Positions 13,550 through 62,479 of a stretch of 64,000 nt of DNA are shown here, piece by piece (position 1 is the stretch's first letter; every line of letters begins with the position of its first letter). The translations under genes and the position numbers were made by a program. The notes under the pieces are model-generated. The model had not been told where the DNA came from, made no database searches, and saw only the letters and a list, made by a program, of their open reading frames with translations. The DNA is from Shigella phage TB004. The stretch lies in sequence record MW822011. One strand, 5' to 3'.

Positions 13550-13585
13550 AAGTTATTTACACGGGGTTTTAGTTGTGATACTATT
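13550..13585 (+). promoter_or_regulatory. T4-type early promoter (TTTACA, 17 nt, TACTAT with TGTGA extension)
   Basis: sigma70-like -35/-10 with T4 early consensus GTTTAC...TGnTAtaAT upstream of ipI. Confidence 0.5.
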
Positions 13586-13620
13586 ACCCTATCAAAACAA
13601 ATGAGTGATTGGAGAATAAA

Positions 13621-13893
13621 ATGAAAACATTTAAAGAATTTATCAATGAAGCTACTTTTAACGAAAAAGTAAAAATTAGTAAAGCTGTCAAGACTTTGAT
13701 TGCTGACATCAATTACCTATATGATATTGATTTAACTGACTATGTAACAGTTGGTAACAAACGTAACTTTTTCGTGTTTGACATCTCTGAACTTGACCAG
13801 AATCAAATTAACAACATTGAGCGTTTTGCTAATGATAAGGGTCTTCGTCATGAGTCAGCGGGTTATAAAAAATACGCAATTTATTTAAAATGA
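13621..13893 (+). CDS. ipI: internal protein I-like, N-terminal capsid targeting sequence MKTFKEFINEA
   Basis: ATG with GGAG RBS; N-terminus matches the MKTYQEFIAE-type targeting sequence of T4 internal proteins; position after 57B. Confidence 0.6.
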   Translation: MKTFKEFINEATFNEKVKISKAVKTLIADINYLYDIDLTDYVTVGNKRNFFVFDISELDQNQINNIERFANDKGLRHESAGYKKYAIYLK

Positions 13894-13925
13894 GTTTACT
13901 TTTAAATAGGGTTGTGGTACTATTA
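13893..13925 (+). promoter_or_regulatory. T4-type early promoter
   Basis: GTTTAC ... TACTAT cassette. Confidence 0.45.
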
Positions 13926-13953
13926 TCTCATCAAAATTAATTAGGAAAATAAA

Positions 13954-14262
13954 ATGAAAACATTTAAAGAATTTATCAATGAAGCGGCTGCGCCAAAGAC
14001 ATTCGTTATTAATACTCAGGCGAGTCTTGATGATGAATACGCGGAGGCAATTCTGAAGTCACTTGCTAAGAACGGTGTTGAAGTAATTGCTTCGGACTTT
14101 AAGAAAGGGGCTTCCGAGATGTTTATTTCTATAACTAAAGGATCTAAAGCTAAGATTAAATCATCATTCGGAGTTGCTCGTACCGATCAAATCGACAATC
14201 ATGACTTTAAACAAACTGGTGCTAAACGGCAGAATACAATTGCATCACGCGGAATAAAATAG
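13954..14262 (+). CDS. second internal-protein-like gene with identical targeting sequence (MKTFKEFINEAAAP...) and different cargo
   Basis: 102-aa ORF with the same leader and first 11 codons as ipI. Confidence 0.55.
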   Translation: MKTFKEFINEAAAPKTFVINTQASLDDEYAEAILKSLAKNGVEVIASDFKKGASEMFISITKGSKAKIKSSFGVARTDQIDNHDFKQTGAKRQNTIASRGIK

Positions 14263-14272
14263 TTTATAAAAA

Positions 14273-14306
14273 CAGTTTACTTTTAGATAGGGTAGTGATA
14301 CTATTA
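14273..14306 (+). promoter_or_regulatory. T4-type early promoter, near-identical to the 13550 copy
   Basis: GTTTAC...GTGATACTATTACCCTATCAA. Confidence 0.5.
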
Positions 14307-14332
14307 CCCTATCAACTACAGAGGAGAATAAA

Positions 14333-14518
14333 ATGAAACGTTGTGAATTAATTCGAAATGTTGCTATTGCAATTTCTGCTTCCGCTTTTAGTTTTTCAAT
14401 GTTTGTTGGATTTATATGCGGATTATTAACTACAGCAGAAAATGTGTTTTCACTTGTAGTAGCATTTTTAATTGGTTTAATTGCTATCGTTATGGATAAA
14501 ATTTCTAAAGGTGAATAG
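14333..14518 (+). CDS. small predicted membrane protein (61 aa)
   Basis: ORF with hydrophobic segments behind the same GGAGAATAAAATG leader. Confidence 0.4.
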   Translation: MKRCELIRNVAIAISASAFSFSMFVGFICGLLTTAENVFSLVVAFLIGLIAIVMDKISKGE

Positions 14519-15287: not shown

Positions 15288-15360
15288 TGGGAATTAGCCA
15301 AGTTGGTAAGGCACTGGATTTTGATTCCAGGATGCAAAGGTTCGAGTCCTTTATTCCCAG
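15288..15360 (+). tRNA. tRNA-Gln (anticodon TTG)
   Basis: Hand-folded cloverleaf, GGTTCGAGTCC T-arm; no encoded CCA. Confidence 0.8.
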
Positions 15361-15361
15361 C

Positions 15362-15448
15362 GCGAGAATGGTCAAATTGGTAAAGGCACAGCACTTAAAA
15401 TGCTGCGGAATGATTTCCTTGTGGGTTCGAGTCCCACTTCTCGCACCA
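15362..15448 (+). tRNA. tRNA-Leu (anticodon TAA), long variable arm
   Basis: Acceptor GCGAGAA/TTCTCGC, anticodon loop CTTAAAA, CCA encoded. Confidence 0.8.
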
Positions 15449-15453
15449 AATTT

Positions 15454-15527
<74 letters not shown>

Positions 15528-15537
15528 ATTTAATTTA

Positions 15538-15611
15538 CTCCGTGTAGCTCAGTTTGGTAGAGCGTCTGCTTTGGGAGCAGAATGTCGCAGGTTCAAATCC
15601 TGCCGCGGAGA
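15538..15611 (+). tRNA. tRNA-Pro (anticodon TGG)
   Basis: D-stem GCTC/GAGC, anticodon loop TTTGGGA, GGTTCAAATCC T-arm. Confidence 0.8.
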
Positions 15612-15613
15612 CT

Positions 15614-15703
15614 GGAGGCGTGGCAGAGTGGTTTAATGCACCGGTCTTGAAAACCGGCAGTCGCTCCGGCGACTCATAGGTTCAAATCCTATCGCCTCCG
15701 CCA
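15614..15703 (+). tRNA. tRNA-Ser (anticodon TGA), class II
   Basis: Long variable arm, anticodon loop CTTGAAA, CCA encoded. Confidence 0.8.
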
Positions 15704-15708
15704 GTTTT

Positions 15709-15784
15709 GCTGATTTAGCTCAGTAGGTAGAGCAACTCACTTGTAATGAGAAGGTCGGCGGTTCGATTCCGTCAATCAGCACCA
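15709..15784 (+). tRNA. tRNA-Thr (anticodon TGT)
   Basis: Anticodon loop CTTGTAA, GGTTCGATTCC T-arm, CCA encoded. Confidence 0.8.
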
Positions 15785-15785
15785 A

Positions 15786-15860
15786 GGCCCTGTAGCTGGA
15801 AGGTTCAAGCAAGCGACTCATAATCGCCAGATGGTGGTTCAATTCCACCCAGGGCCACCA
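15786..15860 (+). tRNA. tRNA-Ile/Met-type (anticodon CAT; the T4 homologue is the AUA-reading tRNA-Ile)
   Basis: Acceptor GGCCCTG/CAGGGCC, anticodon loop CTCATAA. Confidence 0.7.
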
Positions 15861-15873
15861 AATTAAGAATTAA

Positions 15874-15960
15874 GGGGAGTTATCCCGTAGAGGTAGCGGT
15901 GTGGACTGTAAATCCATTGTCATTGCGACTCGGGTGGTTCGACTCCATCACTCCCCACCA
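15874..15960 (+). tRNA. tRNA-Tyr (anticodon GTA), class II; not in the T4 set
   Basis: Anticodon loop CTGTAAA, long variable arm resembling E. coli tRNA-Tyr, GGTTCGACTCC T-arm; D-arm atypical. Confidence 0.6.
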
Positions 15961-15964
15961 ATTT

Positions 15965-16038
15965 GGATGTGTAGCTCAGTGGTAGAGCAGTTGACTGTTA
16001 ATCAATTGGTCCATGGTTCGAATCCATGCATGTCCGCC
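15965..16038 (+). tRNA. tRNA-Asn (anticodon GTT); not in the T4 set
   Basis: D-stem GCTC/GAGC, anticodon loop CTGTTAA, T-stem CATGG/CCATG. Confidence 0.7.
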
Positions 16039-16164
16039 AAATTTGTGACAACTGTCACATTAATATCTACTTGACGCGATTATAGGGTTGAACTGATCAC
16101 TCTTCTCTTAATTTCGTGTGAAGACATCTTGATTGTTGGAGTAGGTATTAATGTGAACTAATTA

Positions 16165-16241
16165 CGGGGTGTAACTCAATTGTATAGAGTAGCGGTCCTC
16201 TAAACCGCAGGTTAAAGGTTAGAATCCTTTCACCCTGGCCA
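16165..16241 (+). tRNA. tRNA-Arg (anticodon TCT)
   Basis: Anticodon stem GCGGT/ACCGC, loop CCTCTAA, CCA encoded. Confidence 0.7.
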
Positions 16242-16262: not shown

Positions 16263-16817
16263 ATGAGAAGTGATGTAGACTGGGACCAAATTAATTTGGC
16301 TATAAAAGCTGGATTAATATACCGTGGTAATTTTGAAATAACACAAGAACTAATTGAAAATGTTGCTTTTCTTAAAATAACAGACAAGAAAAAATTCTTT
16401 TCTATGACTAAAGCCAAACGCTTGTCAATATGGAAAGTATTTTGTAGGACTGCCGCCCTAAATCTTTTGAAATTTAAAGATGAATTTGATATAGAAAAAA
16501 GCTATCGGCAAGCTTTCGTATACATAATGGTAGATACTACAAATCCTAATTATTATAAAATAGGAAGAAGTATAGAACCCGATGTTAGAGTTATAACAGC
16601 AAATACATTTTCACCGTTTAAAAGTTTTAAAATAGTATCATTTAGATATTCCCAGGATGCAGTAGAACTTGAAAAATATATGCACAGCATTTATAATCAG
16701 GACCATATAAATGGCGAATGGTTTTTCTTTCATGACATAAGTTCCATAGTTAAAAAATTAGATACTAAATCTACACAATTTGAAATACCAAATGAGAAGC
16801 CGGGTCGCTACCGGTAA
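16263..16817 (+). CDS. T5orf172/MUG113-like (GIY-YIG superfamily) domain protein, possible homing-endonuclease relative
   Basis: 184-aa ORF with FVYIMVDTTNPNYYKIGRS motif, directly after tRNA-Arg. Confidence 0.5.
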   Translation: MRSDVDWDQINLAIKAGLIYRGNFEITQELIENVAFLKITDKKKFFSMTKAKRLSIWKVFCRTAALNLLKFKDEFDIEKSYRQAFVYIMVDTTNPNYYKIGRSIEPDVRVITANTFSPFKSFKIVSFRYSQDAVELEKYMHSIYNQDHINGEWFFFHDISSIVKKLDTKSTQFEIPNEKPGRYR

Positions 16818-17097: not shown

Positions 17098-17127
17098 AGC
17101 CCCTTCCGAAAGGTTGGGGCTTTTTTG
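17098..17127 (+). terminator. rho-independent terminator (AGCCCC...GGGGCT + T6)
   Basis: 6-bp GC stem followed by TTTTTT. Confidence 0.6.
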
Positions 17128-17135
17128 TATAAATA
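17128..17135 (+). promoter_or_regulatory. late promoter TATAAATA
   Basis: Exact TATAAATA 35 nt upstream of the ATG at 17171. Confidence 0.5.
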
Positions 17136-17170
17136 TAGTAAACAATAAACCTACTTTCTAAGGACCATCA

Positions 17171-17551
17171 ATGTATACTTTTAATGAATTTTTAGCCGAA
17201 ACGGAAGTAATCACCGAAGCCGGCGTACGTATGACAAAAGAGAAATGGCAAGCTGCTTACGATGCTATTTCTGGTACAAAAACTAGTACAGAGTTTTTCA
17301 AAAACGTTCAAGCCATGTACGGTATCGACACTTCTAGCCAAAAAGAATATTACAGAGCTTCTAAAGCATTCAAAGATATTGTTAGTGGTGGTGTTTCTGC
17401 TAAATCGGGTTCGCCTAAAGTAAAACCTGCTCCTACCATTCCTAAACCTGCGACCCCTAAAGCAAAACCTGAGCCTAAGCCGGAAGTAAAAGCACCTCCT
17501 AAAGCTCCTGCTCTTAAGTTTGATACTTCTAGCCTGGAAAAAAAAATATAA
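17171..17551 (+). CDS. hypothetical protein with internal-protein-like N-terminus (MYTFNEFLAE) and Pro/Lys-rich tail; ends inside an A9 tract
   Basis: 126-aa ORF; N-terminus resembles the targeting sequence of the ip genes; stop is 2 nt after a run of nine A. Confidence 0.5.
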   Translation: MYTFNEFLAETEVITEAGVRMTKEKWQAAYDAISGTKTSTEFFKNVQAMYGIDTSSQKEYYRASKAFKDIVSGGVSAKSGSPKVKPAPTIPKPATPKAKPEPKPEVKAPPKAPALKFDTSSLEKKI

Positions 17552-17792
17552 ACAACTATCTTCGCTTGTTCGTGATATTGAATCCGATACATCTTCACTC
17601 GTTCGTGAATTCAATAGTCTTCGCAATGGCCAACATATCAACAACCTTGATACCCCAGACCTTTATCGTCTTTATTTGACTATCGAAGGTTTGAAGTATA
17701 CTCAACCACTTCACGATGCGATTAAAGAAAAACTTCGTCAGGCAGGTCGTTTGGCTGCTGACGCTGCTCAGTATGCAAAAACCCGTAAATAA
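17520..17792 (+). CDS. reading frame continuing the upstream gene after the A9 tract (no ATG of its own)
   Basis: Open frame with no in-frame ATG; one fewer A would fuse it to 17171-17551. Confidence 0.35.
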   Translation: MILLAWKKKYKQLSSLVRDIESDTSSLVREFNSLRNGQHINNLDTPDLYRLYLTIEGLKYTQPLHDAIKEKLRQAGRLAADAAQYAKTRK

Positions 17793-17867
17793 TTAAGTTA
17801 CAATCACTTAAGCCCCTTCCTATGGTTGGGGCTTTCGGGCATCTAGGGCAGATAAATTTTTCACAAA

Positions 17868-17900
17868 GTTGTTTACTTCTCCTTGAGGTATGATACTATA
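17868..17900 (+). promoter_or_regulatory. T4-type early promoter
   Basis: GTTTAC ... TATGATACTAT. Confidence 0.5.
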
Positions 17901-17929
17901 GACCTATCAAAACAAATGAGGAAAACATT

Positions 17930-18433
17930 ATGAGTCTTTATACTGAACTGAATAAAAAATCTGAAGAATCGCGTGACGTTGTTTTTAAAAATGTACAAAA
18001 GCGTATTTTGGAAAAGATGTATGATGCTGCATCTAAAGGTGAAAAATCATGCCGCTTTCCGATGAGATGTTCTACAGATTTATGCTCAAATACTATTGAA
18101 TGGTTAGAAAGCGAAGGTCTTACTGTAGAGAAAAACCCGGCGACTTCTATTGACGGTGAATCATATATTAGTATTTCTTGGGATAAACCACAGGTTAATG
18201 AGAAAGACGGTGATTGGGTTGTGGATGTTAAGACTTCTGATGGTGGACGTTCTGTTGAAGTTTCAGCCGTAGTTAAAGGTACACATGGGCAAAATAGCTG
18301 GGGATGTGGTGGTGAAGAAAAAGAAATTGTTCTTAGTGTGATTGCAAGGTCCACTAGCAATAAAATTGCCCAGAGCATCATCTATGCTGCGTGCATTGAA
18401 GCTGGAAAAATTTGCAAAATTAAAAATAAATGA
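17930..18433 (+). CDS. hypothetical protein (167 aa)
   Basis: ATG-initiated ORF behind an early promoter. Confidence 0.45.
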   Translation: MSLYTELNKKSEESRDVVFKNVQKRILEKMYDAASKGEKSCRFPMRCSTDLCSNTIEWLESEGLTVEKNPATSIDGESYISISWDKPQVNEKDGDWVVDVKTSDGGRSVEVSAVVKGTHGQNSWGCGGEEKEIVLSVIARSTSNKIAQSIIYAACIEAGKICKIKNK

Positions 18434-18494
18434 TGTACAAACACCAAGGACGGTGTTACTATAGACCTATCAAATCAAATGAGAGGAAAATAAA

Positions 18495-18722
18495 ATGGCT
18501 AAAGTTAGTATTGATGTCGTTGATTATGAATACACAGAAGAAGTTATTCGCAACCGCCACCCTGAAGTTCGTATCGATTCAGTCCAAGATTCCAAGTTCT
18601 GGACAACTGAGCTTAATCTGAGTGGTTCTTATGAAGCCGTTAAGAAGTTCATGGTTGAAGAATACTGCGAAGGCATGCACCCGGAAGACGCCGAGTTTTA
18701 TGTCAATTTGATTAAAAAATAA
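18495..18722 (+). CDS. hypothetical protein (75 aa)
   Basis: ORF behind a promoter-like cassette at about 18434-18462. Confidence 0.45.
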   Translation: MAKVSIDVVDYEYTEEVIRNRHPEVRIDSVQDSKFWTTELNLSGSYEAVKKFMVEEYCEGMHPEDAEFYVNLIKK

Positions 18723-18792
18723 TTTACAAACTCTTGAGAGCAGAGTATAATGCTCTCATTGGATAATAAACCACCAATTGAAAGGTAATAAT

Positions 18793-19386: not shown

Positions 19387-19390
19387 TGAT

Positions 19391-19407
19391 AAGGGGCTTC
19401 GGCCCTT
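19391..19407 (+). terminator. GGGGCTTCGGCCC-type UUCG hairpin
   Basis: AAGGGGC-TTCG-GCCCTT. Confidence 0.5.
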
Positions 19408-19427
19408 ATTACTTGGAGTAAATAGGA

Positions 19428-22212: not shown

Positions 22213-22246
22213 TTGTTTACTTTCTCCTAAAACTGTGATAGTATAT
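22213..22246 (+). promoter_or_regulatory. T4-type early promoter
   Basis: GTTTAC ... TGTGATAGTAT. Confidence 0.5.
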
Positions 22247-22281
22247 TCACAGTTACTAATTAAAATATTTAAAGGAAACAC

Positions 22282-22849
22282 ATGAAAACCTATAAAGAAT
22301 TTATCGCTGGAAAAGGCCAAAGGCATTAATAAAGATGAGTGGACTTACCGAGGAAACGGCTTTGACCCTAAAACAGCCCCTATTGAACGATACTTAGCTA
22401 CAAAAGCTTCCGACTTTAAAGCTTTCGCTTGGGAAGGACTTCGCTGGCGTACCGATCTAAATATTGAAGTTGATGGGCTTAAATTTGGCCATATTCAAGA
22501 TGTTGTTGCTAGTAACTTGGATGCAGCTTTTGTTAAAGCTGACGGTGACCTTCGTCGCTGGAATTTAAAACTATTCTCTAAACAGAAAGGCCCGGTGTTT
22601 GTGCCTAAAGCTGGTAAATGGGTTATTGATAATAAATTAGCTAAGGCTGTCAACTACGCTGGTCTTGAATTCGCCAAGCATAAATCATCATGGAAAGGTC
22701 TTGATGCAATGGCCTTCCGTAAAGAATTTGCTGATGTTATGGCTAAAGGCGGCTTTAAGGCAGAAATAGATACCTCTAAAGGTACGTTTAAAGACGCTAA
22801 TGTTCAGTACGCTTACGCTGTTGCTAATGCAGCCCGTGGTAATTCTTAA
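22282..22849 (+). pseudogene. ipIII: internal protein III-like gene interrupted by a +1 frameshift after codon 13
   Basis: MKTYKEFIAGKGQRH-stop, then an open shifted frame (KGINKDEWTYRGNGFDPKTAPIERYL...) to 22849; removing one C near 22317 restores a single ORF of about 189 aa. Confidence 0.65.
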
Positions 22850-22957
22850 TAAAGCCGAGTTCGAACCCGGTAATAGATAAATATAGAAACAGACAATTCG
22901 CACGCATGAATTGTCCCAAACTTAAAGAATAAAACTATTTACATTTAAAGGAAACAC

Positions 22958-23261: not shown

Positions 23262-23294
23262 AGTTTACTTTCTCCTAGAATTGTGATAGTATAT
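23262..23294 (+). promoter_or_regulatory. T4-type early promoter, near-duplicate of the 22213 copy
   Basis: GTTTACTTTCTCCT...TGTGATAGTATATTCA. Confidence 0.5.
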
Positions 23295-23317
23295 TCATAA
23301 TTACTTGGAGGGGTAAA

Positions 23318-23682
23318 ATGACTCGTATTAATTTGACTTTAGTATCTGAACTTGCTGATCAACATTTAATCGCGGAATACCATGAATTGCCGCGTGTTTT
23401 TGATATAATTCGTAAACACGCGGCAAATGGAAAAATGATTATAATCCATGCAAATCAGCTATTAAGTTGAGTCAACAACGACTCGATGAAAAAATTTTAA
23501 TGAAGCCGCATTGGTATAAGTATTACGGCAAAAATATTTACATTCAAATAACATGGGAACAAGCTGGACCTCATGATTCTGTGAGGGATTCCCGCCAACC
23601 TGTAATAAGGTCGAGCCCAAGTGCGGTAATGGGTAAATACAGAAATGGACAATTCATGCGCCACGGAATGGCCCAAATTTAG
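23318..23682 (+). pseudogene. denV: denV (endonuclease V, pyrimidine-dimer glycosylase) with internal deletion and frame change
   Basis: N-terminal 46 aa [17 protein letters not shown]... then stop at 23470; C-terminal remnant SQQRLDEKI..KPHWYKYYGK in another frame. Confidence 0.65.
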
Positions 23683-25687: not shown

Positions 25688-25721
25688 CTGTTTACTTTTC
25701 CTCTTGACTGTGGTATAATTT
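25687..25721 (+). promoter_or_regulatory. T4-type early promoter
   Basis: GTTTAC ... TGTGGTATAAT. Confidence 0.55.
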
Positions 25722-25746
25722 TTCTATCAGTTAAGAGGAGAATAAC

Positions 25747-26208
25747 ATGACTATCAACACAGAAGTTTTTATCCGTCGAAATAAGCTCCGTCGTCACTTT
25801 GAGTCGGAGTTTCGTCAAATTAACAATGAGATTCGTGAGGCATCAAAAGCAGCAGGGGTCTCATCGTTTCATCTAAAATATTCTCAACATCTTCTTGATC
25901 GTGCAATTCAACGGGAGATTGATGAGACATATGTTTTTGAATTATTCCACAAAATAAAAGACCATGTTTTAGAAGTTAATGAATTCCTGAGTATGCCTCC
26001 ACGCCCTGATATTGACGAAGATTTTATTGATGGTGTTGAATATCGTCCTGGGCGTTTAGAAATCACAGATGGAAATCTTTGGCTTGGATTTACAGTTTGT
26101 AAACCTAATGCGAAGTTCAAAGACCCGTCGCTTCAATGCAGGATGGCAATTATCAATAGTCGTCGTTTACCGGGAAAGGCTTCTAAAGCAGTAATTAAAA
26201 CTCAATGA
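25747..26208 (+). CDS. regB: RegB endoribonuclease
   Basis: 153-aa ORF MTINTEVFIRRNKLRRHFESEF...; size and position. Confidence 0.7.
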   Translation: MTINTEVFIRRNKLRRHFESEFRQINNEIREASKAAGVSSFHLKYSQHLLDRAIQREIDETYVFELFHKIKDHVLEVNEFLSMPPRPDIDEDFIDGVEYRPGRLEITDGNLWLGFTVCKPNAKFKDPSLQCRMAIINSRRLPGKASKAVIKTQ

Positions 26209-29858: not shown

Positions 29859-30008
29859 CTCCTTCGGGAGTCCTTTTTTCATTTTGCCAGTTTACTTTCC
29901 AAAATGAGTATGGTATAATAAAACTATCTTATAGATCGGGAGTCCTTTTTTCATTTTGCCAGTTTACTTTCCAAAATGAGTATGGTATAATAAAACTATC
30001 TTATAGAG
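29859..30008 (+). repeat. tandem direct duplication (2 x 72 bp) of a terminator-hairpin + early-promoter cassette
   Basis: GGGAGTCCTTTTTTCATTTTGCCAGTTTACTTTCCAAAATGAGTATGGTATAATAAAACTATCTTATAG occurs twice in tandem; first copy preceded by CTCCTTCGGGAG hairpin. Confidence 0.8.
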
Positions 30009-30017
30009 GAGAACATC

Positions 30018-30206
30018 ATGAAAATTGAAGCACTTAATCAAGAAGGAAATATCTACGTTATCATTAATGGTGATTTTTTCGTCGACATGGATGAAGTTAC
30101 TAGTGAAGAACTTGTAGAACTTCTTAAGAAACGTTATGATATGTGTGATGAAGCTGCAACTCATATGGCGTGTGCAATATTCTCTCTTTCATATGTGGTG
30201 GAATAA
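30018..30206 (+). CDS. hypothetical small acidic protein (62 aa)
   Basis: ORF behind the duplicated promoter. Confidence 0.4.
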
Positions 30207-30770: not shown

Positions 30771-30802
30771 GGTTTACAAGTTGGCAAGGTTATGGTATAG
30801 TA
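30771..30802 (+). promoter_or_regulatory. T4-type early promoter
   Basis: GTTTAC ... TATGGTATAGT. Confidence 0.45.
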
Positions 30803-30933
30803 ATCTTGTCAACTGCCAAGGAGAAGAGAATGAAAATTTTGTTTGTTGTGTATGTGATGATTCAATATAATTACCCAATGTTTACTTATAATCTAGTGAA
30901 CAACATTATTGATATTATTCAAAGGAGTATGTA

Positions 30934-33924: not shown

Positions 33925-33926
33925 TA

Positions 33927-33951
33927 GGGAGCCTTCGGGCTCCCTTTTTTT
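33927..33951 (+). terminator. rho-independent terminator (GGGAGCC-TTCG-GGCTCCC + T7)
   Basis: 7-bp GC-rich stem, UUCG loop, T-run. Confidence 0.65.
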
Positions 33952-34005
33952 ATTTCTTATGGTACTATACAACTATCAACTACTGATACAGATTTGGAGA
34001 ATAAA

Positions 34006-34974
34006 ATGAAAACTGTAACTATCAATAAGGGTATCTACTTCGGTAAAGAAATCTCTGGAACTTTTGAGCTCTTAGGCGAATGGTTCCCAGATAATGCTCC
34101 GGTAGATGCACAAGGAGATGGTAAAGTTTTTGTTGAAATTGACGGTAAACGTCGCGGTGTTTGGGTTTACAAATCAGATATTTCATATGATGGTGTAAAA
34201 GTTGAAGAAGTTAAAGAATCGTATGAAGATATGAAAATCCGCATTAATAAAAGATTTAATGTTATGGGAATGATGACGAATGGTATTATTAACGGAAATA
34301 TTCGTTCATTAATTATCTCTGGCGCAGCAGGTATTGGTAAAACGTATTCTTTAGATAAAGCTTTAAATAAAGCAAATGATAATGAATACATTGAATATAA
34401 AAGCATTAATGGTAAAATCTCTGGTATTGGTCTTTATGAGCAGCTTTGGAATAATCGTGAAGAGAATTCTGTCCTTTTGATTGATGATGTGGATGTTTTC
34501 TCTGATATGGACATTCTTAATCTTCTAAAAGCTGCTCTGGACACTGGAGAGACCCGTAAAGTCTGCTGGAGCACTGCATCTTCTTACTTAGAAGAAAAAG
34601 GCATTGACCGTGAGTTTGAATTTAAAGGAACGATTGTTTTTATCACAAACGTTGACATTGACCGCGAATTAGACCGTGGTACTAAACTTGCCCCACACTT
34701 ACAAGCATTAGTGTCCCGCTCGGTTTATTTGGATTTGGGTGTTCACACTAATGAAGAAATTATGGTCAGGGTTGAAGATGTTATTCTTTCAACTGACATG
34801 ATGCAAAAGCGCGGTCTTTCTGATGAAGAAACTTATAAAGCATTATCATGGATGAAAGTTAATGTTAATCGTTTACGTAATGTTTCACTGCGTACTGCAC
34901 TTTATCTTGCTGACTTTATTATGACCGACAAAAACCATTGGGAAGAAATTGCTGAAACGGTATTATTAAAATGA
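34006..34974 (+). CDS. P-loop ATPase (322 aa)
   Basis: Walker A SGAAGIGKT, Walker B VLLIDDVD; same GGAGAATAAAATG leader as the ip cassettes. Confidence 0.55.
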   Translation: MKTVTINKGIYFGKEISGTFELLGEWFPDNAPVDAQGDGKVFVEIDGKRRGVWVYKSDISYDGVKVEEVKESYEDMKIRINKRFNVMGMMTNGIINGNIRSLIISGAAGIGKTYSLDKALNKANDNEYIEYKSINGKISGIGLYEQLWNNREENSVLLIDDVDVFSDMDILNLLKAALDTGETRKVCWSTASSYLEEKGIDREFEFKGTIVFITNVDIDRELDRGTKLAPHLQALVSRSVYLDLGVHTNEEIMVRVEDVILSTDMMQKRGLSDEETYKALSWMKVNVNRLRNVSLRTALYLADFIMTDKNHWEEIAETVLLK

Positions 34975-36075: not shown

Positions 36076-36110
36076 TGGTTTACAAGACTGTTCCTCTGTG
36101 GTACTATACA
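36076..36110 (+). promoter_or_regulatory. T4-type early promoter with conserved leader GGTACTATACAACTATCAACTAC
   Basis: GTTTAC ... TGTGGTACTAT; leader shared with copies near 33958 and 62436. Confidence 0.5.
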
Positions 36111-36135
36111 ACTATCAACTACGGAGGAACAGAAA

Positions 36136-36663
36136 ATGAACGCTAAAGATATTTTCAACTTGGTAAATTACAACGATGGTAAATTTAAATCTGAAGCACA
36201 AAGCAAGTTCTTTAACGACATCTCAATCGGAGGTGAAATCACTGTTGATGGAGGACAAATTTACAAATCCCGTTGGAATTGGATCGTTATTATTGATGAG
36301 ATTGGTATTGTAGAAATTTACAAAAATACGAATAAAAATCGTACATTACACTGGTCTCGTGATACTAACGAACAGTACAAAAAGAATAAAGCATCTAAAT
36401 TATCTCGTGTAACTCAAGAAGATATTGAGTTCATCAAGAAAGATATTTTAATGTATGATAACTTAATTGCTGAAGAGCAAGCTGTTATTGATAAATTTGA
36501 TGAGATTAAAGCTTCTCGTGAAATTCCTGATTTTATGAAAGAATCAGTAAATGAACGATACACTCTCATTTCAGAGCGTATTGAAACTTACAAAAAGCAA
36601 AGAGCTGAACGCCAAAATACTCTTCGGAAGTTTGAAGAACGGTTAAAGACGGTACTCGCATAA
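36136..36663 (+). CDS. hypothetical protein (175 aa)
   Basis: ATG-initiated ORF. Confidence 0.45.
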   Translation: MNAKDIFNLVNYNDGKFKSEAQSKFFNDISIGGEITVDGGQIYKSRWNWIVIIDEIGIVEIYKNTNKNRTLHWSRDTNEQYKKNKASKLSRVTQEDIEFIKKDILMYDNLIAEEQAVIDKFDEIKASREIPDFMKESVNERYTLISERIETYKKQRAERQNTLRKFEERLKTVLA

Positions 36664-38032: not shown

Positions 38033-39061
38033 ATGAAAACTCGTTCTCAAATTGAAGATATGGTTCGTAATGCCAGCTATACTCGTGATGTTATGACATT
38101 TTTATGTGAAAATAATTTAGACCCTGATAAAGTTAATCGTGTTATTCATCACTTTAAGTATACGAATAGCAGTGAATGGATGCGTAATTTTAGTAAAGCG
38201 GGGTATATTACACAAATGACTGCTCGTGAGCAGCTCACCGATTTCTGTAAAACTATTGATTATAAAAATCCTCTATTTGTTCAAGGCGTTGGTCAAAGTA
38301 AGGTCGATTTATCATCTGGATTTTTCAATCCAAATCATTATCGTATTGAATGGAGATTTATTGCTCTGTTCCGTAGACAATTAAAGCAAATTTTATCAAC
38401 TGCGAGTCGATTAAAAGGTTCTGATATTAACTTAAAGAATCTGAAATTTGATGGTTATACTCTTCAGATGGAAGTAAGACCATTAAAAGAAAATAATAGA
38501 ACTGCACGAATTAGCTTTAAACCTAACACAAAAAATTCTCTTTCAATTTGCGAGTGCCTTAAATCGCAGTTGACAGAAGCATTTAAGTATATGGACGTTG
38601 TTGCCGCTGTTCAGTCTAAGATTTTACCTCGTTTTGAGCGATTTAAATTAGACACAACAACATATGAACTTGATATGATCGTTTCATTTAAATACGATTT
38701 TTTGAGAAAGGACGAAGTCCCACAAGAGAAAAAGCAAGAAGTACAAGATAACTTAAATTTAAATTTATCCAATTACTCATCAAACGATCCTAAATTTTGG
38801 ATGTATAGGTCAAGCAATATAGATGCATGTAAACTTAATAAAGTGAGTTTTCTTCCTACTGAAAATTCAAATTTTAAACCTGTAGAAAAATGGCACGCTG
38901 ACGCGATTGAGAAGTCTCTTAAGGCAGTAGATGATGAACTCGTTAAAGCGACCAATGAAGTGCTAGAAGCTGAAAAGGTGTTAGAACAAGCTCAGTCAAG
39001 GGTTCAAAATCTGACAAAGCAACGTTCTAAACTGAACAATGCACTAAATGCACTGAACTAG
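38033..39061 (+). CDS. coiled-coil-tailed protein, paralog 2 of 4 (342 aa)
   Basis: Internal STASRLKGSD motif and C-terminal coiled coil. Confidence 0.5.
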   Translation: MKTRSQIEDMVRNASYTRDVMTFLCENNLDPDKVNRVIHHFKYTNSSEWMRNFSKAGYITQMTAREQLTDFCKTIDYKNPLFVQGVGQSKVDLSSGFFNPNHYRIEWRFIALFRRQLKQILSTASRLKGSDINLKNLKFDGYTLQMEVRPLKENNRTARISFKPNTKNSLSICECLKSQLTEAFKYMDVVAAVQSKILPRFERFKLDTTTYELDMIVSFKYDFLRKDEVPQEKKQEVQDNLNLNLSNYSSNDPKFWMYRSSNIDACKLNKVSFLPTENSNFKPVEKWHADAIEKSLKAVDDELVKATNEVLEAEKVLEQAQSRVQNLTKQRSKLNNALNALN

Positions 39062-39090
39062 TTTACTTTGCCACAAGGATGTGGTATAAT
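39061..39090 (+). promoter_or_regulatory. T4-type early promoter
   Basis: GTTTAC ... TGTGGTATAAT. Confidence 0.5.
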
Positions 39091-39118
39091 GTTCTTACTT
39101 TCTACTGAGGAGATTAAT

Positions 39119-40120
39119 ATGACTCGTAACGAATATATCAAATCATTCAATAGTGTTATTGATGATAAAGCTATACCGATGTTTGGTCAAAATAGCGTTA
39201 TTTCTATTATCAATCAATGGCTCAATAGTGTTGATGCAGGTATTGTTTCTTCTACTAAATTTATTCATGAAATTCGTAAAATTTCTAGTCGTGTAGATAA
39301 AGATGTTATCAAGAAAACCTTTAAAGAGTCTCGTCTTCTTTCATATTTGGTTAATCGTGATATTCTTGGTAATTTTGGGAAAGAAATTAAACGAACCAAA
39401 GATGTAGTAGGATATAATTGGTTCGGTGATGTTAATTCTTATCATCTTAATAATAAAGAAGACCCTGAGAATATTTTTACTCGTCGTTGGATTAGTAATT
39501 TCAGACTTTTCAAAGGACAGATTCTAAAATCAGCTTCTAAATTATGTTATGGCGATTATCGTCAAATTCATCCCTTAGCTGATGATATGATTATCATAAA
39601 AGAATATGAACTTGATAAAAATAAAGTATCTATTTTTGTGAATTATGGATTTTTTACACCAGAAACTAACCAAAAGAACATTAATAAATTTTTCTCAATT
39701 GCTAGCACTATAACTCGTCAATTAGAAACCGCATTACTTTGTATGGAAACAGTAGAAAATATTCATACGTATCCTTTTAAGAATATATGCGGTTGGGAAG
39801 GATATAAAATTGTAGTTAGTCTTCGTGAAGTGAAATGTGCGTACTCACCGACTGATAAAGAAATTTACCAACAAAAATGTGATGAAATTGTGAATACTCC
39901 TAAAGAAGAAATTACACTTGAGGAACTAATGGATAATCTTGATGATTCGCCTGAACCTGTAGAAATTCGTCCAGAAGTTATTGCACTAGAAAAGGCTTAT
40001 AAAGAAGTTCTAGAAATTTCTAATAAAGCGCAGAAAGAATATGAGCAGGCTAAAAGGATTTGGGAAGAATCTGTTAATCGCCTGGATCGTCTTGAACAAG
40101 CTTTACAGTTAATTAAGTAA
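39119..40120 (+). CDS. coiled-coil-tailed protein, paralog 3 of 4 (333 aa)
   Basis: Internal SASKLCYGD motif and C-terminal coiled coil. Confidence 0.5.
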   Translation: MTRNEYIKSFNSVIDDKAIPMFGQNSVISIINQWLNSVDAGIVSSTKFIHEIRKISSRVDKDVIKKTFKESRLLSYLVNRDILGNFGKEIKRTKDVVGYNWFGDVNSYHLNNKEDPENIFTRRWISNFRLFKGQILKSASKLCYGDYRQIHPLADDMIIIKEYELDKNKVSIFVNYGFFTPETNQKNINKFFSIASTITRQLETALLCMETVENIHTYPFKNICGWEGYKIVVSLREVKCAYSPTDKEIYQQKCDEIVNTPKEEITLEELMDNLDDSPEPVEIRPEVIALEKAYKEVLEISNKAQKEYEQAKRIWEESVNRLDRLEQALQLIK

Positions 40121-47438: not shown

Positions 47439-47453
47439 AGGCCCTCTGGGCCT
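47439..47453 (+). terminator. hairpin AGGCCC-TCT-GGGCCT followed by T-rich run
   Basis: 6-bp GC stem after the stop. Confidence 0.45.
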
Positions 47454-47531
47454 TTCTTTCTCACATTCTGTATATTACCATTCTAAGCTATCGTTCCCTT
47501 CTTATCATTCCCTAAAATAATTTTCACAAAG

Positions 47532-47565
47532 TTGTTTACAAGAAGTTCAAACTATGGTATTATTG
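47532..47565 (+). promoter_or_regulatory. T4-type early promoter
   Basis: GTTTAC ... TATGGTATTAT. Confidence 0.5.
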
Positions 47566-47762
47566 ACATATGAATTGCCTTTGAGGATTTGATATGGTTG
47601 ATAAAGAGATTAAAAGGGACCAGTATTATCGTGTTAACGGACATATTGTTATTGTTACAGCAGTAGATGATCTAGATGTTCATTATACTGTACTTAAATG
47701 GAACAAACACATGATTTGTGACCGTGCTGTATTTAGTTCAGTTGCTAAGGAAATTAAACTCC

Positions 47763-52870: not shown

Positions 52871-52885
52871 AGGGCTTCGGCCCTT
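52869..52885 (+). terminator. AAGGGC-TTCG-GCCCTT hairpin
   Basis: UUCG hairpin at the a-gt stop. Confidence 0.5.
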
Positions 52886-53046
52886 TAGCTTTATACGGAG
52901 TTTGATATAATGATATTTCTTGGATATGTGATACTTTTTCTAGCGTTTTATTTGTTCACTAGAGCATGTTGGATTGGGTTCTTTAGCACTCCAGATGGAT
53001 TTATTTCAATAATTTTATTTTGCATTTCAATGACGGTTCTTGATAT

Positions 53047-56890: not shown

Positions 56891-57577
56891 ATGAAACTGT
56901 CTAAAGATACACTGAATATTTTGAAAAATTTCGCTACTATTAACTCTGGTATTATGCTTAAATCTGGTCAATTTATTATGACTCGCGCGGTTAATGGTAC
57001 AACTTATGCGGAAGCAAATATTTCTGACACTATTGATTTTGATGTAGCAATTTACGATTTGAACGGTTTTCTCGGTATTCTGTCTCTAGTTAATGATGAT
57101 GCAGAAATTTCCCAGTCAGAAGATGGTAATATTAAAATTGCTGATGCTCGTTCAACAATTTTTTGGCCAGCAGCCGATCCAAGTACAGTAGTTGCTCCTA
57201 ATAAACCAATTCCATTCCCGGTAGCATCTGTTGTTACTGAAATTAAAGCTGAAGACCTTCAACAGCTATTGCGTGTATCTCGCGGTCTGCAGATTGATAC
57301 AATTGCTATCACAGTAAAAGAAGGTAAAATCGTAATTAACGGTTTTAATAAAGTAGAAGATTCTGCTTTAACCCGTGTTAAATATTCTTTGACTCTTGGT
57401 GATTATGATGGTGAAAATACATTTAATTTCATTATCAATATGGCAAATATGAAAATGCAACCAGGAAATTATAAACTTCTGCTCTGGGCAAAAGGTAAAC
57501 AAGGTGCTGCTAAATTTGAAGGTGAACACGCGAATTATGTAGTAGCTCTTGAAGCTGATTCTACCCACGATTTTTAA
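56891..57577 (+). CDS. 45: sliding clamp gp45
   Basis: 228 aa MKLSKDTLNILKNFATINSGIMLKSGQFIM..., recognisable as T4 gp45. Confidence 0.9.
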   Translation: MKLSKDTLNILKNFATINSGIMLKSGQFIMTRAVNGTTYAEANISDTIDFDVAIYDLNGFLGILSLVNDDAEISQSEDGNIKIADARSTIFWPAADPSTVVAPNKPIPFPVASVVTEIKAEDLQQLLRVSRGLQIDTIAITVKEGKIVINGFNKVEDSALTRVKYSLTLGDYDGENTFNFIINMANMKMQPGNYKLLLWAKGKQGAAKFEGEHANYVVALEADSTHDF

Positions 57578-57581
57578 TAGA

Positions 57582-57595
57582 GGGCTTCGGCCCTT
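57582..57595 (+). terminator. GGGCTTCGGCCC hairpin
   Basis: UUCG hairpin after gene 45. Confidence 0.5.
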
Positions 57596-57628
57596 TATAA
57601 TTTACACTAAAACTTGAATGAGGAAATT

Positions 57629-59154: not shown

Positions 59155-59523
59155 ATGATTGAAATTACTCTTAAAAAACCTGAAGATTTTCTGAAAGTAA
59201 AAGAAACCTTGACTCGTATGGGAATTGCTAATAATAAAGATAAAGTTCTGTATCAGTCCTGCCACATTCTTCAGAAAAAAGGACTATACTATATCGTTCA
59301 TTTTAAAGAAATGCTTCGTATGGATGGCCGTCAGGTTGAAATGACAGAAGAAGATGAAGTTCGTCGTGATTCGATTGCATGGCTGTTAGAAGATTGGGGG
59401 CTGATTGAAATCGTTCCTGGTCAAAGAACTTTTATGAAAGATTTAACTAATAACTTCCGAGTTATTTCTTTTAAGCAAAAACATGAATGGAAACTCGTTC
59501 CTAAATATACGATTGGTAATTAA
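59155..59523 (+). CDS. regA: translational repressor RegA
   Basis: 122 aa; synteny. Confidence 0.8.
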   Translation: MIEITLKKPEDFLKVKETLTRMGIANNKDKVLYQSCHILQKKGLYYIVHFKEMLRMDGRQVEMTEEDEVRRDSIAWLLEDWGLIEIVPGQRTFMKDLTNNFRVISFKQKHEWKLVPKYTIGN

Positions 59524-59525
59524 GC

Positions 59526-59543
59526 AAGGGGCTTCGGCCCCTT
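59526..59543 (+). terminator. AAGGGGC-TTCG-GCCCCTT hairpin
   Basis: UUCG hairpin between regA and 43. Confidence 0.5.
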
Positions 59544-59601
59544 ATTTGGAGTATAATATATCAAGAGCCTAATAACTCGGGCTATAAACTAAGGAATATC
59601 T

Positions 59602-62298
59602 ATGAAAGAATTTTATATCTCTATCGAAACAGTCGGAAATAACATTGTTGAACGTTATATTGATGAAAATGGAAAGGAACGTACTCGTGAAGTAGAATAT
59701 CTTCCGACTATGTTTAGACACTGTAAGGAAGAATCAAAATACAAAGACATTTACGGTAAAAACTGTGCTCCTCAAAAATTTCCATCAATGAAAGATGCAC
59801 GAGATTGGATGAAACGAATGGAAGACATCGGTCTCGAAGCTCTCGGTATGAACGATTTTAAACTCGCTTATATCAGTGATACATATGGTTCAGAAATTGT
59901 TTATGACCGAAAATTTGTTCGTGTAGCTAACTGTGACATTGAGGTTACTGGCGATAAATTTCCTGACCCAATGAAAGCAGAATATGAAATTGATGCTATC
60001 ACTCATTATGATTCAATTGACGACCGTTTTTACGTCTTTGATTTGTTGAATTCAATGTACGGTTCAGTATCAAAATGGGATGCAAAGTTAGCTGCTAAGC
60101 TTGACTGTGAAGGTGGTGATGAAGTTCCTCAAGAAATTCTTGACCGAGTAATTTATATGCCATTCGATAATGAGCGTGATATGCTCATGGAATATATTAA
60201 TCTCTGGGAACAGAAACGACCGGCTATTTTTACCGGTTGGAATATTGAGGGATTTGACGTTCCGTATATCATGAATCGTGTTAAAATGGTTCTGGGCGAA
60301 CGCAGTATGAAACGCTTCTCCCCAATCGGTCGAGTAAAATCTAAATTAATTCAAAATATGTACGGTAGCAAAGAAATTTATTCTATTGATGGCGTATCTA
60401 TTCTTGATTATTTAGATTTGTATAAGAAATTCGCATTTACTAATTTGCCGTCATTTTCTTTGGAATCAGTTGCTCAGCACGAAACCAAAAAAGGTAAATT
60501 GCCGTACGATGGTCCTATTAATAAACTTCGTGAGACTAATCATCAACGATACATTAGTTATAACATCATTGACGTAGAATCAGTTCAAGCAATTGATAAA
60601 ATTCGTGGGTTTATCGATCTAGTTTTAAGTATGTCTTATTATGCTAAAATGCCTTTTTCTGGTGTAATGAGTCCTATTAAAACTTGGGATGCTATTATTT
60701 TTAACTCACTGAAAGGTGAACACAAGGTTATTCCTCAACAAGGTTCGCACGTTAAACAAAGTTTTCCAGGTGCATTTGTATTTGAACCTAAAGCGATTGC
60801 TCGTCGATACATTATGAGTTTTGACTTGACGTCTCTGTATCCTAGCATTATTCGTCAGGTTAACATTAGTCCTGAGACTATTCGCGGGCAGTTTAAAGTT
60901 CATCCAATTCATGAATATATCGCAGGAACAGCTCCTAAGCCAAGTGATGAATATTCTTGCTCTCCGAATGGATGGATGTATGATAAGCACCAAGAAGGTA
61001 TCATTCCAAAGGAAATCGCTAAAGTATTTTTCCAGCGTAAAGATTGGAAAAAGAAAATGTTCGCTGAAGAAATGAATGCCGAAGCTATTAAAAAGATTAT
61101 TATGAAAGGTGCAGGGTCTTGTTCAACTAAACCAGAAGTTGAACGATATGTTAAGTTCAATGATGATTTCTTAAATGAACTATCAAATTACACTGAATCT
61201 GTTCTTAATAGTCTGATCGAAGAATGTGAAAAAGCAGCTACACTTGCTAACACAAATCAGCTGAACCGTAAAATTCTTATTAACAGTCTTTATGGTGCTC
61301 TTGGTAACATTCATTTCCGTTACTATGATTTGCGAAATGCTACTGCTATCACAATTTTTGGTCAAGTTGGTATTCAGTGGATTGCTCGTAAAATTAATGA
61401 ATATCTGAATAAAGTATGTGGAACTGATGGTGAAGATTTCATCGCAGCAGGTGATACTGATTCGGTATATGTTTGTGTAGATAAAGTAATTGAAAAAGTA
61501 GGTCTTGACCGCTTTAAAGAACAAAATGATTTAGTTGAATTCATGAATCAGTTTGGTAAGAAAAAGATGGAACCTATGATTGATGTTGCATATCGTGAGT
61601 TATGTGATTATATGAATAACCGCGAGCATCTAATGCATATGGACCGTGAAGCTATTTCTTGTCCTCCACTTGGTTCAAAGGGCGTTGGTGGATTTTGGAA
61701 AGCGAAAAAACGCTATGCTCTGAACGTTTATGATATGGAAGATAAGCGATTTGCTGAACCACATCTAAAAATCATGGGTATGGAAACTCAACAGAGTTCA
61801 ACACCAAAAGCAGTACAAGAAGCTCTCGAAGAAAGTATTCGTCGCATTCTTCAGGAAGGCGAAGAGTCTGTCCAAGAATACTATAAGAACTTTGAGAAAG
61901 AATATCGTCAACTTGACTATAAAGTTATTGCTGAAGTAAAAACCGCGAACGATATAGCGAAATATGATGATAAAGGTTGGCCAGGATTTAAATGTCCGTT
62001 CCATATTCGTGGTGTGCTAACTTATCGTCGAGCTGTTAGCGGTTTAGGTGTAGCTCCAATTTTGGATGGAAATAAGGTAATGGTTCTTCCATTACGTGAA
62101 GGAAATCCATTTGGTGACAAGTGCATTGCTTGGCCATCAGGCACAGAACTTCCAAAAGAAATTCGTTCTGACGTACTATCTTGGATTGACTACTCAACTT
62201 TGTTCCAAAAATCGTTTGTTAAACCGCTTGCGGGCATGTGTGAATCAGCAGGTATGGACTATGAGGAAAAAGCTTCGTTAGACTTCCTGTTTGGCTGA
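59602..62298 (+). CDS. 43: DNA polymerase gp43 (family B)
   Basis: 898 aa with exonuclease and polymerase motifs (YGDTDS); recognisable T4 gp43. Confidence 0.95.
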   Translation: MKEFYISIETVGNNIVERYIDENGKERTREVEYLPTMFRHCKEESKYKDIYGKNCAPQKFPSMKDARDWMKRMEDIGLEALGMNDFKLAYISDTYGSEIVYDRKFVRVANCDIEVTGDKFPDPMKAEYEIDAITHYDSIDDRFYVFDLLNSMYGSVSKWDAKLAAKLDCEGGDEVPQEILDRVIYMPFDNERDMLMEYINLWEQKRPAIFTGWNIEGFDVPYIMNRVKMVLGERSMKRFSPIGRVKSKLIQNMYGSKEIYSIDGVSILDYLDLYKKFAFTNLPSFSLESVAQHETKKGKLPYDGPINKLRETNHQRYISYNIIDVESVQAIDKIRGFIDLVLSMSYYAKMPFSGVMSPIKTWDAIIFNSLKGEHKVIPQQGSHVKQSFPGAFVFEPKAIARRYIMSFDLTSLYPSIIRQVNISPETIRGQFKVHPIHEYIAGTAPKPSDEYSCSPNGWMYDKHQEGIIPKEIAKVFFQRKDWKKKMFAEEMNAEAIKKIIMKGAGSCSTKPEVERYVKFNDDFLNELSNYTESVLNSLIEECEKAATLANTNQLNRKILINSLYGALGNIHFRYYDLRNATAITIFGQVGIQWIARKINEYLNKVCGTDGEDFIAAGDTDSVYVCVDKVIEKVGLDRFKEQNDLVEFMNQFGKKKMEPMIDVAYRELCDYMNNREHLMHMDREAISCPPLGSKGVGGFWKAKKRYALNVYDMEDKRFAEPHLKIMGMETQQSSTPKAVQEALEESIRRILQEGEESVQEYYKNFEKEYRQLDYKVIAEVKTANDIAKYDDKGWPGFKCPFHIRGVLTYRRAVSGLGVAPILDGNKVMVLPLREGNPFGDKCIAWPSGTELPKEIRSDVLSWIDYSTLFQKSFVKPLAGMCESAGMDYEEKASLDFLFG

Positions 62299-62310
62299 TA
62301 GAATAAATCT

Positions 62311-62332
62311 AGGGACCTCCGGGTCCCTTTTT
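62311..62332 (+). terminator. rho-independent terminator (AGGGACC-TCC-GGGTCCCT + T-run)
   Basis: GC stem plus TTTTT after gene 43. Confidence 0.6.
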
Positions 62333-62413
62333 CATACAAGTAATATAAATCTATACTTAGGAAAAATAGATGATTCTGGACCTCTGGAATTCATTAAAAA
62401 TTTTTTCACAAAA

Positions 62414-62447
62414 CTGTTTACATCTCTGTTCTTCCGTGGTACTATAC
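62414..62447 (+). promoter_or_regulatory. T4-type early promoter with conserved leader GGTACTATACAACTATCAACT
   Basis: GTTTAC ... CGTGGTACTAT. Confidence 0.5.
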
Positions 62448-62479
62448 AACTATCAACTGATACGGATTTGGAGAATGAA

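Follow-up and report, generated by a model that had tools for sequence, protein, structure and literature searches.

Do the early promoters that recur along a T4-like phage genome also act as places at which its accessory genes are exchanged? The question is raised by a stretch of 64,000 nucleotides (nt) from Shigella phage TB004 (record MW822011; hereafter the window), in which an initial annotation had noticed recurrent promoter/leader cassettes and had likened them to mobile promoter/stem-loop elements. Judged from the letters of the window and its relatives, these repeats are very probably σ70-dependent early promoters of a T4-like phage, lying in repeat cassettes that occasionally recombine. 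The observation is real but already known, as the idea of promoter-early stem-loop (PeSL) cassettes is in print for T4 and for PST, a close relative.

The early promoters of T4 are textbook knowledge. Their consensus places GTTTAC at −36 to −31 (PMC1524935), and they have been called 'uber' UP/−35/TGn/−10 promoters with additional consensus regions (PMC2988021). PeSL cassettes were described by Arbiol (2010) for phages RB49 and phi1, in which mini-circles formed between adjacent copies were detected (PMC2839356). The concept was carried over to PST and T4 by Comeau, Arbiol and Krisch (2014), who gave the consensus TTTACW-N17-TAYWAT, described 'degraded' half-elements, and tied the concept to the polymorphism of the internal-protein (ip) locus reported by Repoila (1994) (PMC4122927). 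Since PeSLs are published for PST and T4, the concept is not new for this phage group.

The window belongs to Tequatrovirus, the T4-like coliphages. Megablast queries 13000–37000 and 37000–61900 matched more than 1,100 T4-like phage records, with about 95–96% identity to the best of them (236Ecol005PP, 132, UFV-AREG1 and RB14); T4 itself is, with 236Ecol005PP and RB14, among the phages about 95% identical to the window. The window aligns collinearly with T4 in reverse complement (76998 → 25497) and runs from gp8 to imm. On the − strand (1–10121) lie gp8, gp7, gp6 and gp5; on the + strand, from 10169, follow gp4, 2, 3, 1, 57A, 57B, the ip locus, transfer RNA (tRNA) genes, e, ipIII/ipII, vs, regB, tk and rI, then the mobD region, nrdC.11 to nrdC, 49, nrdD, nrdG, 55, a-gt, 47, 46, 45, 44, 62, regA, gene 43 (59602–62298), imm.1 and imm. 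The stretch that bears the cassettes spans the large early and middle gene block. Seven relatives were aligned to the window: T4, RB14, PST, BF15, 236Ecol005PP, Shfl2 and FriedrichMiescher. The T4 records NC_000866 and AF158101 annotate promoters only in one note on Pe133295, and the orthology of promoters was therefore judged by sequence.

Early promoters of the T4 type

The general form of a full site is GTTTAC, 17 nt, TGn, TAnnAT. The window holds 15 full T4-type early promoters and one copy without a −35 element, all on the + strand between 13555 and 62482, in agreement with the at least 15 copies first announced. The strict pattern [GA]TT[TG]AC, 13–15 nt, TGnTAnnAT finds 13 matches on the + strand and none on the − strand; a weight matrix trained on these 13 adds the copies at 18457 and 30796, with the − strand still empty, and at 33963 a sixteenth copy retains TGn, −10 and leader but no −35. 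GTTTAC-N14-20-TASTAT alone is matched seven times against 0.17 expected. A plain σ70 scan (TTGACA/TATAAT) did not rise above shuffled expectation (80 versus 75, 102 versus 88 and 57 versus 46), so that the extended T4-type motif, rather than AT-richness, accounts for the signal. The σ70 and terminator scans, with counts near shuffled expectation, were used for hairpins only.

The copies, named here by the first position of their −10 hexamer, follow a plan of about 60–70 nt: an A/T-rich stretch in some, GTTTAC, a 17-nt spacer, a TGn −10, a start-site region that often reads CTATCAA, a leader of 25–37 nt, a Shine-Dalgarno sequence and the start codon. TGn and TA..AT are present in all 16. The −35 is exactly GTTTAC in 13 copies, ATTTAC at 13579 and ATGTAC at 18457, and was lost by deletion at 33963; the spacer measures 17 nt in 14 copies and 16 nt at 17894, and the −10 hexamer reads TA[CG]TAT in ten of the 16 and TATAAT, TATTAT or TATAGT in six. 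A start codon lies 25–37 nt downstream of every copy except the first of a tandem duplication, which reads into the second. At ten loci the preceding gene ends so close to the promoter (stop codon 24–37 nt before the −10) that its coding sequence runs into the upstream part of the promoter. A/T-rich AAAATAATTTTCACAAA-type stretches stand upstream of the −35 at 13579, 17894, 47558 and 62440; at most others the 3′ end of the preceding gene takes that place.

All 15 full sites are on the coding strand. Orthologous sites exist in T4 and the six other relatives, and ten copies (those of regB, nrdC.4, nrdC.8, mobD.2, 55.6, imm.1, ipIII, trna.4, nrdC.10 and mobD.5) have near-identical orthologues at the same gene junctions. 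The cassettes are thus like T4 early promoters in their GTTTAC, 17-nt spacer and TGn plus TAnnAT, in the A/T-rich upstream stretch of some, in their early-gene orientation and, for most, in their T4-orthologous positions. They are unlike them in the 72-nt duplication and swapped core at mobD.5, in the nrdC.10 copy without −35, and in preceding accessory open reading frames (ORFs) that T4 lacks (17930–18433, and the ip-like ORFs at 13621 and 13954). Promoter activity in TB004 is predicted: from established knowledge, the σ70 RNA polymerase of the host would fire the cassettes right after infection and produce short early transcription units.

In ten of the 16 cassettes (for example at 13589, 14309, 17904, 33973, 36112 and 62450) the −10 hexamer is followed, always at a distance of 4 nt, by CTATCA(A), close to where transcription is expected to start; an ORF inserted in phage FriedrichMiescher has its junction at CTATCAA as well. 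Searched with Rfam, the window yielded ten tRNAs only and no RNA family in the cassette leaders.

Shared leaders and traces of exchange

The copies share sequence beyond the consensus positions. The three sub-families named in the initial annotation are all exact, its coordinates being off by 0–3 nt, and they share exact stretches of 18–43 nt: the 21-mer GGTACTATACAACTATCAACT at 33961, 36100 and 62438 (0 expected by chance), the 18-mer TACTATAGACCTATCAAA at 17894 and 18457, and GTTTACTTTCTCCTA..A..TGTGATAGTATATTCA at 22215 and 23263, in 43 nt at 91% identity. Conservation that takes in the leader, the Shine-Dalgarno sequence and the ATG, which in PeSLs extends over roughly 100 bp, is seen here within sub-families. 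Over the 24 nt after the −10, ten of 105 cassette pairs lie above the 99.9% quantile of random window pairs (0.1 expected). Copies are alike within sub-families only: a 60-nt family (D1), the 43 nt at 91%, and a leader of about 50 nt common to 33963 and 62440. A scan of T4 reveals the TGGTACTATACAACTATCAACT(AC)TGATAC.. type as a dispersed repeat upstream of imm.1, nrdC.8, nrdC.10, e.8, frd.3, motA and ndd.6, and in T4 the frd.3 promoter matches that of nrdC.10 exactly for more than 50 nt, though 91 kilobases separate them. The scattered copies form paralogous repeat families.

At the ip locus, T4, RB14, PST, Shfl2 and FriedrichMiescher hold different ip genes between the same cassette pieces. 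The junctions lie in the TGn/−10 (13911, 14292) and directly after the capsid-targeting sequence (13641, seen against all five of these phages, and 13979). The gene starts at 13621, 13954, 22283 and 22958 share MKT(F/Y)(K/Q)EFI..E behind a conserved leader, with bodies that vary among relatives, and the ip-like ORF of 90 amino acids (aa) starts with MKTFKEFINEA, its form of this shared capsid-targeting sequence. The T-even ip loci of Repoila (1994), as cited in PMC4122927 and PMC2839356, are similar in that ip genes are exchanged between a conserved promoter/leader and an N-terminal capsid-targeting sequence MKT(F/Y)(K/Q)EFI; the matching parts of the window are 13555–14335 and 22215–22990. 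Unlike those loci, the window has 90- and 102-aa ip-like ORFs that are common to 236Ecol005PP and BF15 and not to T4, RB14 or PST. The adjoining trna.4 cassette exists among the relatives with two alternative upstream halves and one constant downstream half.

Conversion tracts connect distant loci as well. The spacer and −10 of mobD.5 in the window (AAAATGAGTATGGTATAATA) equal the T4 soc/mrh.2 cassette at 20 of 20 nt, whereas the orthologous mobD.5 cassette of T4 and PST reads GTTTGAGCTGTGGTACTATA there and matches the window at 10 of 20 nt; the swapped tract is bounded by shared GTTTACTTTCC and AGAGGAG. The imm.1 leader of RB14 is of the e.8 type, and the imm.1 spacer of 236Ecol005PP is the nrdC.8 spacer. 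FriedrichMiescher carries a 66-codon ORF within the nrdC.10 cassette, with its junction at CTATCAA, and shares with Shfl2 a 237-nt ORF inserted at the imm.1 cassette; compared with each other, the small ORFs inserted at these two cassettes in FriedrichMiescher proved to be unrelated, not one gene.

Changes within single cassettes are also found. The nrdC.10 cassette of Shfl2 has an internal tandem duplication, and in the window a perfect 72-nt tandem duplication (29864–30007), with GGAG microhomology at its junction, leaves mobD.5 preceded by two identical promoters at a spacing of 72 nt; the phage records listed as its best matches span one copy only (188 nt of a 259-nt query). In the nrdC.10 cassette of the window, about 35 nt, with the upstream (UP) element, the −35 and the greater part of the spacer, are deleted (33945–33962) relative to all seven relatives. 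The remnant at 33963, a terminator followed by TGG TACTAT, might still be a weak extended −10 promoter. A swap of the leader 'ACT' indel between nrdC.10 and imm.1 (window versus T4) was considered as evidence of conversion and set aside, as ACTACT slippage could recur independently.

With junctions inside cassettes and cores exchanged between distant loci across the seven relatives, the initial proposal that the repeats are recombination substrates is partly supported. T4-type recombination needs short homology only, and copies could recombine with each other or with those of co-infecting relatives; repeats of 40–90 nt would be a substrate for the efficient homologous recombination of the phage, both between loci and between co-infecting phages. 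The expected outcomes would be gene replacement, insertion of an ORF together with its cassette, patch conversion between cassettes, small tandem duplications and deletions, and it is in these terms that we infer the direction and mechanism of each exchange. A dedicated mobility mechanism beyond ordinary homologous recombination is not called for by the data and is not supported.

Cassettes as markers of variable genes

How far the cassettes mark exchanged cargo, as first supposed, can be judged from structural differences of at least 25 nt between the window and the seven relatives, aligned with sensitive gap filling. There are 56 distinct differences with 76 unique breakpoints, 24 of which lie in cassettes. 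Gene junctions are variable in 10 of 15 cases with a cassette and in 31 of 87 without (odds ratio 3.6, one-sided Fisher p = 0.025), and equal-sized intervals give a similar enrichment, with p between 0.01 and 0.07.

Several points weigh against a strong role for the cassettes. Most differences lie elsewhere: 23 of the 56 touch a cassette, 15 with both ends and eight with one, while 14 fall at homing-endonuclease or intron sites and 19 at neither such a feature nor a cassette, so that the statement that cassettes flank most accessory ORFs was too strong. Without the three ip-locus cassettes the enrichment is no longer significant (7 of 12 versus 31 of 87, p = 0.12), and with the ipIII and denV cassettes also left out it falls to 5 of 10 (p = 0.29). 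Five cassettes, at 25714 (regB), 30796, 36102, 39085 and 47558, have no adjoining breakpoint in any of the seven relatives; invariance of the loci, which had been named as grounds for giving up the idea, thus applies to these five and not to the ten variable cassette junctions. A stem-loop is absent at ten of 15 loci, where the preceding stop codon abuts the −35, and likeness in CTATCAA and in the GGAG of the Shine-Dalgarno sequence may reflect functional constraint rather than common descent. The relatives on which the breakpoint test rests are not independent of one another, and selection for intact genes also drives surviving breakpoints toward gene junctions, whatever the mechanism. Given this kinship and this selection, the modest enrichment of breakpoints at cassette junctions is suggestive, not strong, and cargo is marked in part: at the ip loci above all, and not at the cassettes that never vary.

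Of the other readings, the one that survives best holds that homing endonucleases and ordinary illegitimate recombination drive the differences, the cassettes being bystanders in plastic regions; we regard it as doubtful. It draws on the 14 differences at seg, mob or intron sites (the segB slot, the mobD slot, a seg-like ORF at 34971–35690, the I-TevII site at 43918, a mobC-like ORF at 45197–46036, mobB at 50815–51609 and an insertion at 53050), on the 19 with neither feature, and on the dependence of the enrichment on the ip loci. However, the ip, e.8, ipIII, nrdC.10 and imm.1 junctions lie inside the cassette, with cassette homology on both sides, and no endonuclease gene adjoins these events.

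A strict form of PeSL mobility, in which promoter plus stem-loop elements excise the genes they flank as mini-circles that re-insert and are the main driver of turnover, seems to us unlikely. The window copies do resemble the PeSLs of RB49/phi1, PST/T4 and nt-1/KVP40 in joining an early promoter to a Shine-Dalgarno sequence and ATG, sometimes with a stem-loop, in plastic regions; they are found at indel or replacement junctions and fit TTTACW-N17-TAYWAT, and the copy at 33963 resembles the 'degraded' half-elements (PMC4122927). Mini-circles between neighbouring PeSLs were found by inverse polymerase chain reaction in RB49 and phi1 (PMC2839356), PeSLs have been reported beside indels in PST/T4 (PMC4122927), and the window has single ORFs with cassettes on both sides (13621–13893, 13954–14262 and 17930–18433), with single ORFs inserted at cassettes in relatives. 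Yet an upstream stem-loop is present at only five of the 15 loci (Table 1) and two thirds of the copies lack one, so the full PeSL anatomy fits one third of them and the likening to promoter/stem-loop cassettes is apt for the model and for the junctions inside cassettes, less so for the stem-loop itself. The link to variable genes falls short of what the model implies: the 15 differences with both ends in a cassette are outnumbered by those at endonuclease or intron sites and at neither feature, and significance is lost once the ip loci are set aside. No recombinase or specific site is known for such mobility, and the present data point to none. Lambdoid morons and integron cassettes, an analogy drawn in PMC2839356, are similar in that a single accessory gene moves with its own expression signals; unlike them, the present cassettes have no integrase or attC-type site, and the proposed vehicle is a repeated promoter acting through general homologous recombination.

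That the copies are alike purely through functional constraint, since promoters, start sites and ribosome-binding sites must be, with no exchange and with breakpoints that merely follow gene junctions, is improbable. T4 early promoters do carry consensus beyond the −35 and −10 (PMC2988021), CTATCAA stands at the start site in 10 of 16 copies, and five cassettes are stable and orthologous in all relatives. But the predicted promoters at 25714 and 39085 have quite different spacers and leaders, and long exact matches are therefore not required for function. Moreover, spacer and leader variants swap between loci (mobD.5 with soc/mrh.2, imm.1 with e.8 and imm.1 with nrdC.8), and in the trna.4 cassette the upstream half is exchanged while the downstream half stays the same. 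Chance matches to an AT-rich promoter consensus, for which only the unremarkable plain σ70 scan would speak, are ruled out for practical purposes by the 13–15 extended motifs on one strand versus 0 on the other, the seven matches where 0.17 were expected, the exact recurrence of 18–21-mers (0 expected) and the position of every site at a gene start.

Neighbouring genes and wider meaning

The cassettes are listed locus by locus in Table 1.

Table 1. Early-promoter cassettes of the window, with the start of each −10 hexamer
Position	Strand	−10 start	Feature	Remarks
13555..13623	+	13579	Early promoter ATTTAC-17-TGATACTAT, leader and ATG of 90-aa internal-protein-like ORF	
13894..13956	+	13918	Early promoter, leader and ATG of second ip-like ORF (102 aa)	Breakpoints 13911, 13979; start region of ORF 98% identical to 13611 copy over 42 nt
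14275..14335	+	14299	Early promoter and leader of trna.4 homologue	Breakpoints 14265, 14292
17812..17932	+	17894	Stem-loop GCCCC..GGGGC (17812–17832), promoter (16-nt spacer), leader and ATG of 167-aa accessory ORF	Breakpoints 17854, 17879, 17910, 17933
18433..18497	+	18457	Promoter with weak −35 ATGTAC, −10/leader same as 17894, then ATG of Frd.3 paralogue	Breakpoints 18424, 18480
22215..22285	+	22239	ipIII early promoter (TGTGATAGTAT) and leader	Insertions of 281–757 nt on either side in relatives
23263..23320	+	23287	Early promoter upstream of denV remnant	91% identical to 22215 over 43 nt
25690..25749	+	25714	regB early promoter	Same as T4 through to start codon; no adjoining breakpoint
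29864..30020	+	29914, 29986	Two perfect 72-nt tandem copies (half terminator plus promoter), then mobD.5 start	Half-hairpin per 72-nt unit (29854/29926)
30772..30832	+	30796	Early promoter (TATAGT) of mobD.2 homologue	Conserved in all relatives compared
33926..34008	+	33963	Hairpin GGGAGCC-TTCG-GGCTCCC (33926–33945) and T run, truncated cassette (TGG TACTAT and leader), nrdC.10 start	
36078..36138	+	36102	nrdC.8 early promoter and leader	TGGTACTATACAACTATCAACT sub-family member
39061..39121	+	39085	nrdC.4 early promoter (TGG TATAAT)	Conserved
47439..47596	+	47558	Terminator-like hairpin (47439–47453), then early promoter and leader of 55.6 homologue	
62311..62482	+	62440	Terminator hairpin after gene 43 (62311–62328), then imm.1 early promoter and leader	Leader, Shine-Dalgarno sequence and ATG 94% identical to nrdC.10 copy

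Two genes behind these promoters have interrupted reading frames in this sequence. In ipIII (22283–22330) an 11-nt deletion directly after the capsid-targeting sequence, relative to 236Ecol005PP and Shfl2, stops the frame after 15 codons, the remainder (to 22849) being open in another frame; the gene would be either a pseudogene or the product of an assembly error. The gene for endonuclease V, denV (23318–23700), is a remnant: it agrees with T4 DenV over roughly its first 40 codons, after which about 180 nt are missing internally and the frame shifts, so that the ORF has 50 codons; C-terminal residues of DenV can still be read in a different frame.

An accessory module of about 1.7 kilobases (17100–18800) consists of ORFs of 126, 90 and 167 aa, without Pfam domain, and a Frd.3 paralogue, and is complete in 43 phage records as against more than 1,200 that match the surrounding region. 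The paralogue (18495–18722; 75 aa, 59% identical to T4 Frd.3; Pfam PF05798, E = 1e-37) has a promoter cassette to itself and is found in the e.8/e.6 region, a long way from the frd locus. Pfam recognised no domains in most accessory ORFs adjoining the cassettes. Between the ip locus and this module, ten tRNA genes (15288–16241: Gln, Leu, Gly, Pro, Ser, Thr, Met/Ile-CAU, Tyr, Asn and Arg) compare with eight in T4, and a 184-aa ORF with T5orf172/MUG113 domains (16263–16817) follows them in the segB slot of T4.

The homing-endonuclease content differs from that of T4. The seg-like ORF lies between nrdC.10 and nrdC.9, and the mobC-like ORF, with weak NUMOD matches and three 51-nt tandem repeats (45641–45788; 79–90% identical), between nrdD and nrdG; mobB is present here and absent from six of the seven relatives, and nrdD is intron-free at 43918, where T4, PST and 236Ecol005PP have the I-TevII intron.

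A second repeat family consists of GGGCTTCGGCCC-type hairpins with a UUCG loop at gene ends (19389–19414, 48388–48414, 52867–52892, 57573–57602 and 59520–59546), presumably intrinsic terminators or RNA-stabilising hairpins. Upstream of gene 55 lies a MotA-box middle promoter (49266–49310; ATGCTTTAAG then TGATATAAT). As it lies 11 nt past the right breakpoint of a 260-nt ORF (48991–49260) that T4 and PST lack, there are hints that middle promoters could mark junctions too.

For the family as a whole, the finding adds little in kind, early promoters as recombination linkers having been published already through PeSLs and ip-locus polymorphism. What it offers is calibration. Cassettes are indeed associated with variable genes, but modestly so and mostly through the internal-protein loci, while homing endonucleases and unmarked junctions explain more of the differences than cassettes do. 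Used as a predictor of cargo exchange, the cassettes should be expected to find about 40% of events and to flag, in addition, several junctions that never vary.

Beyond the occasional recombination of early-promoter cassettes that we favour, ectopic gene conversion over tens of kilobases might be frequent and shuffle promoter cores and leaders between Tequatrovirus loci, a proposition to which we give even chances. If it is true, the window may hold three recent products of the process: the soc/mrh.2-type core in mobD.5, the 72-nt duplication and the deletion of about 35 nt at nrdC.10. The PeSL hypothesis has so far rested on three phage pairs, and the at least 1,200 sequenced Tequatrovirus genomes would then allow its first quantitative, phylogeny-aware test.

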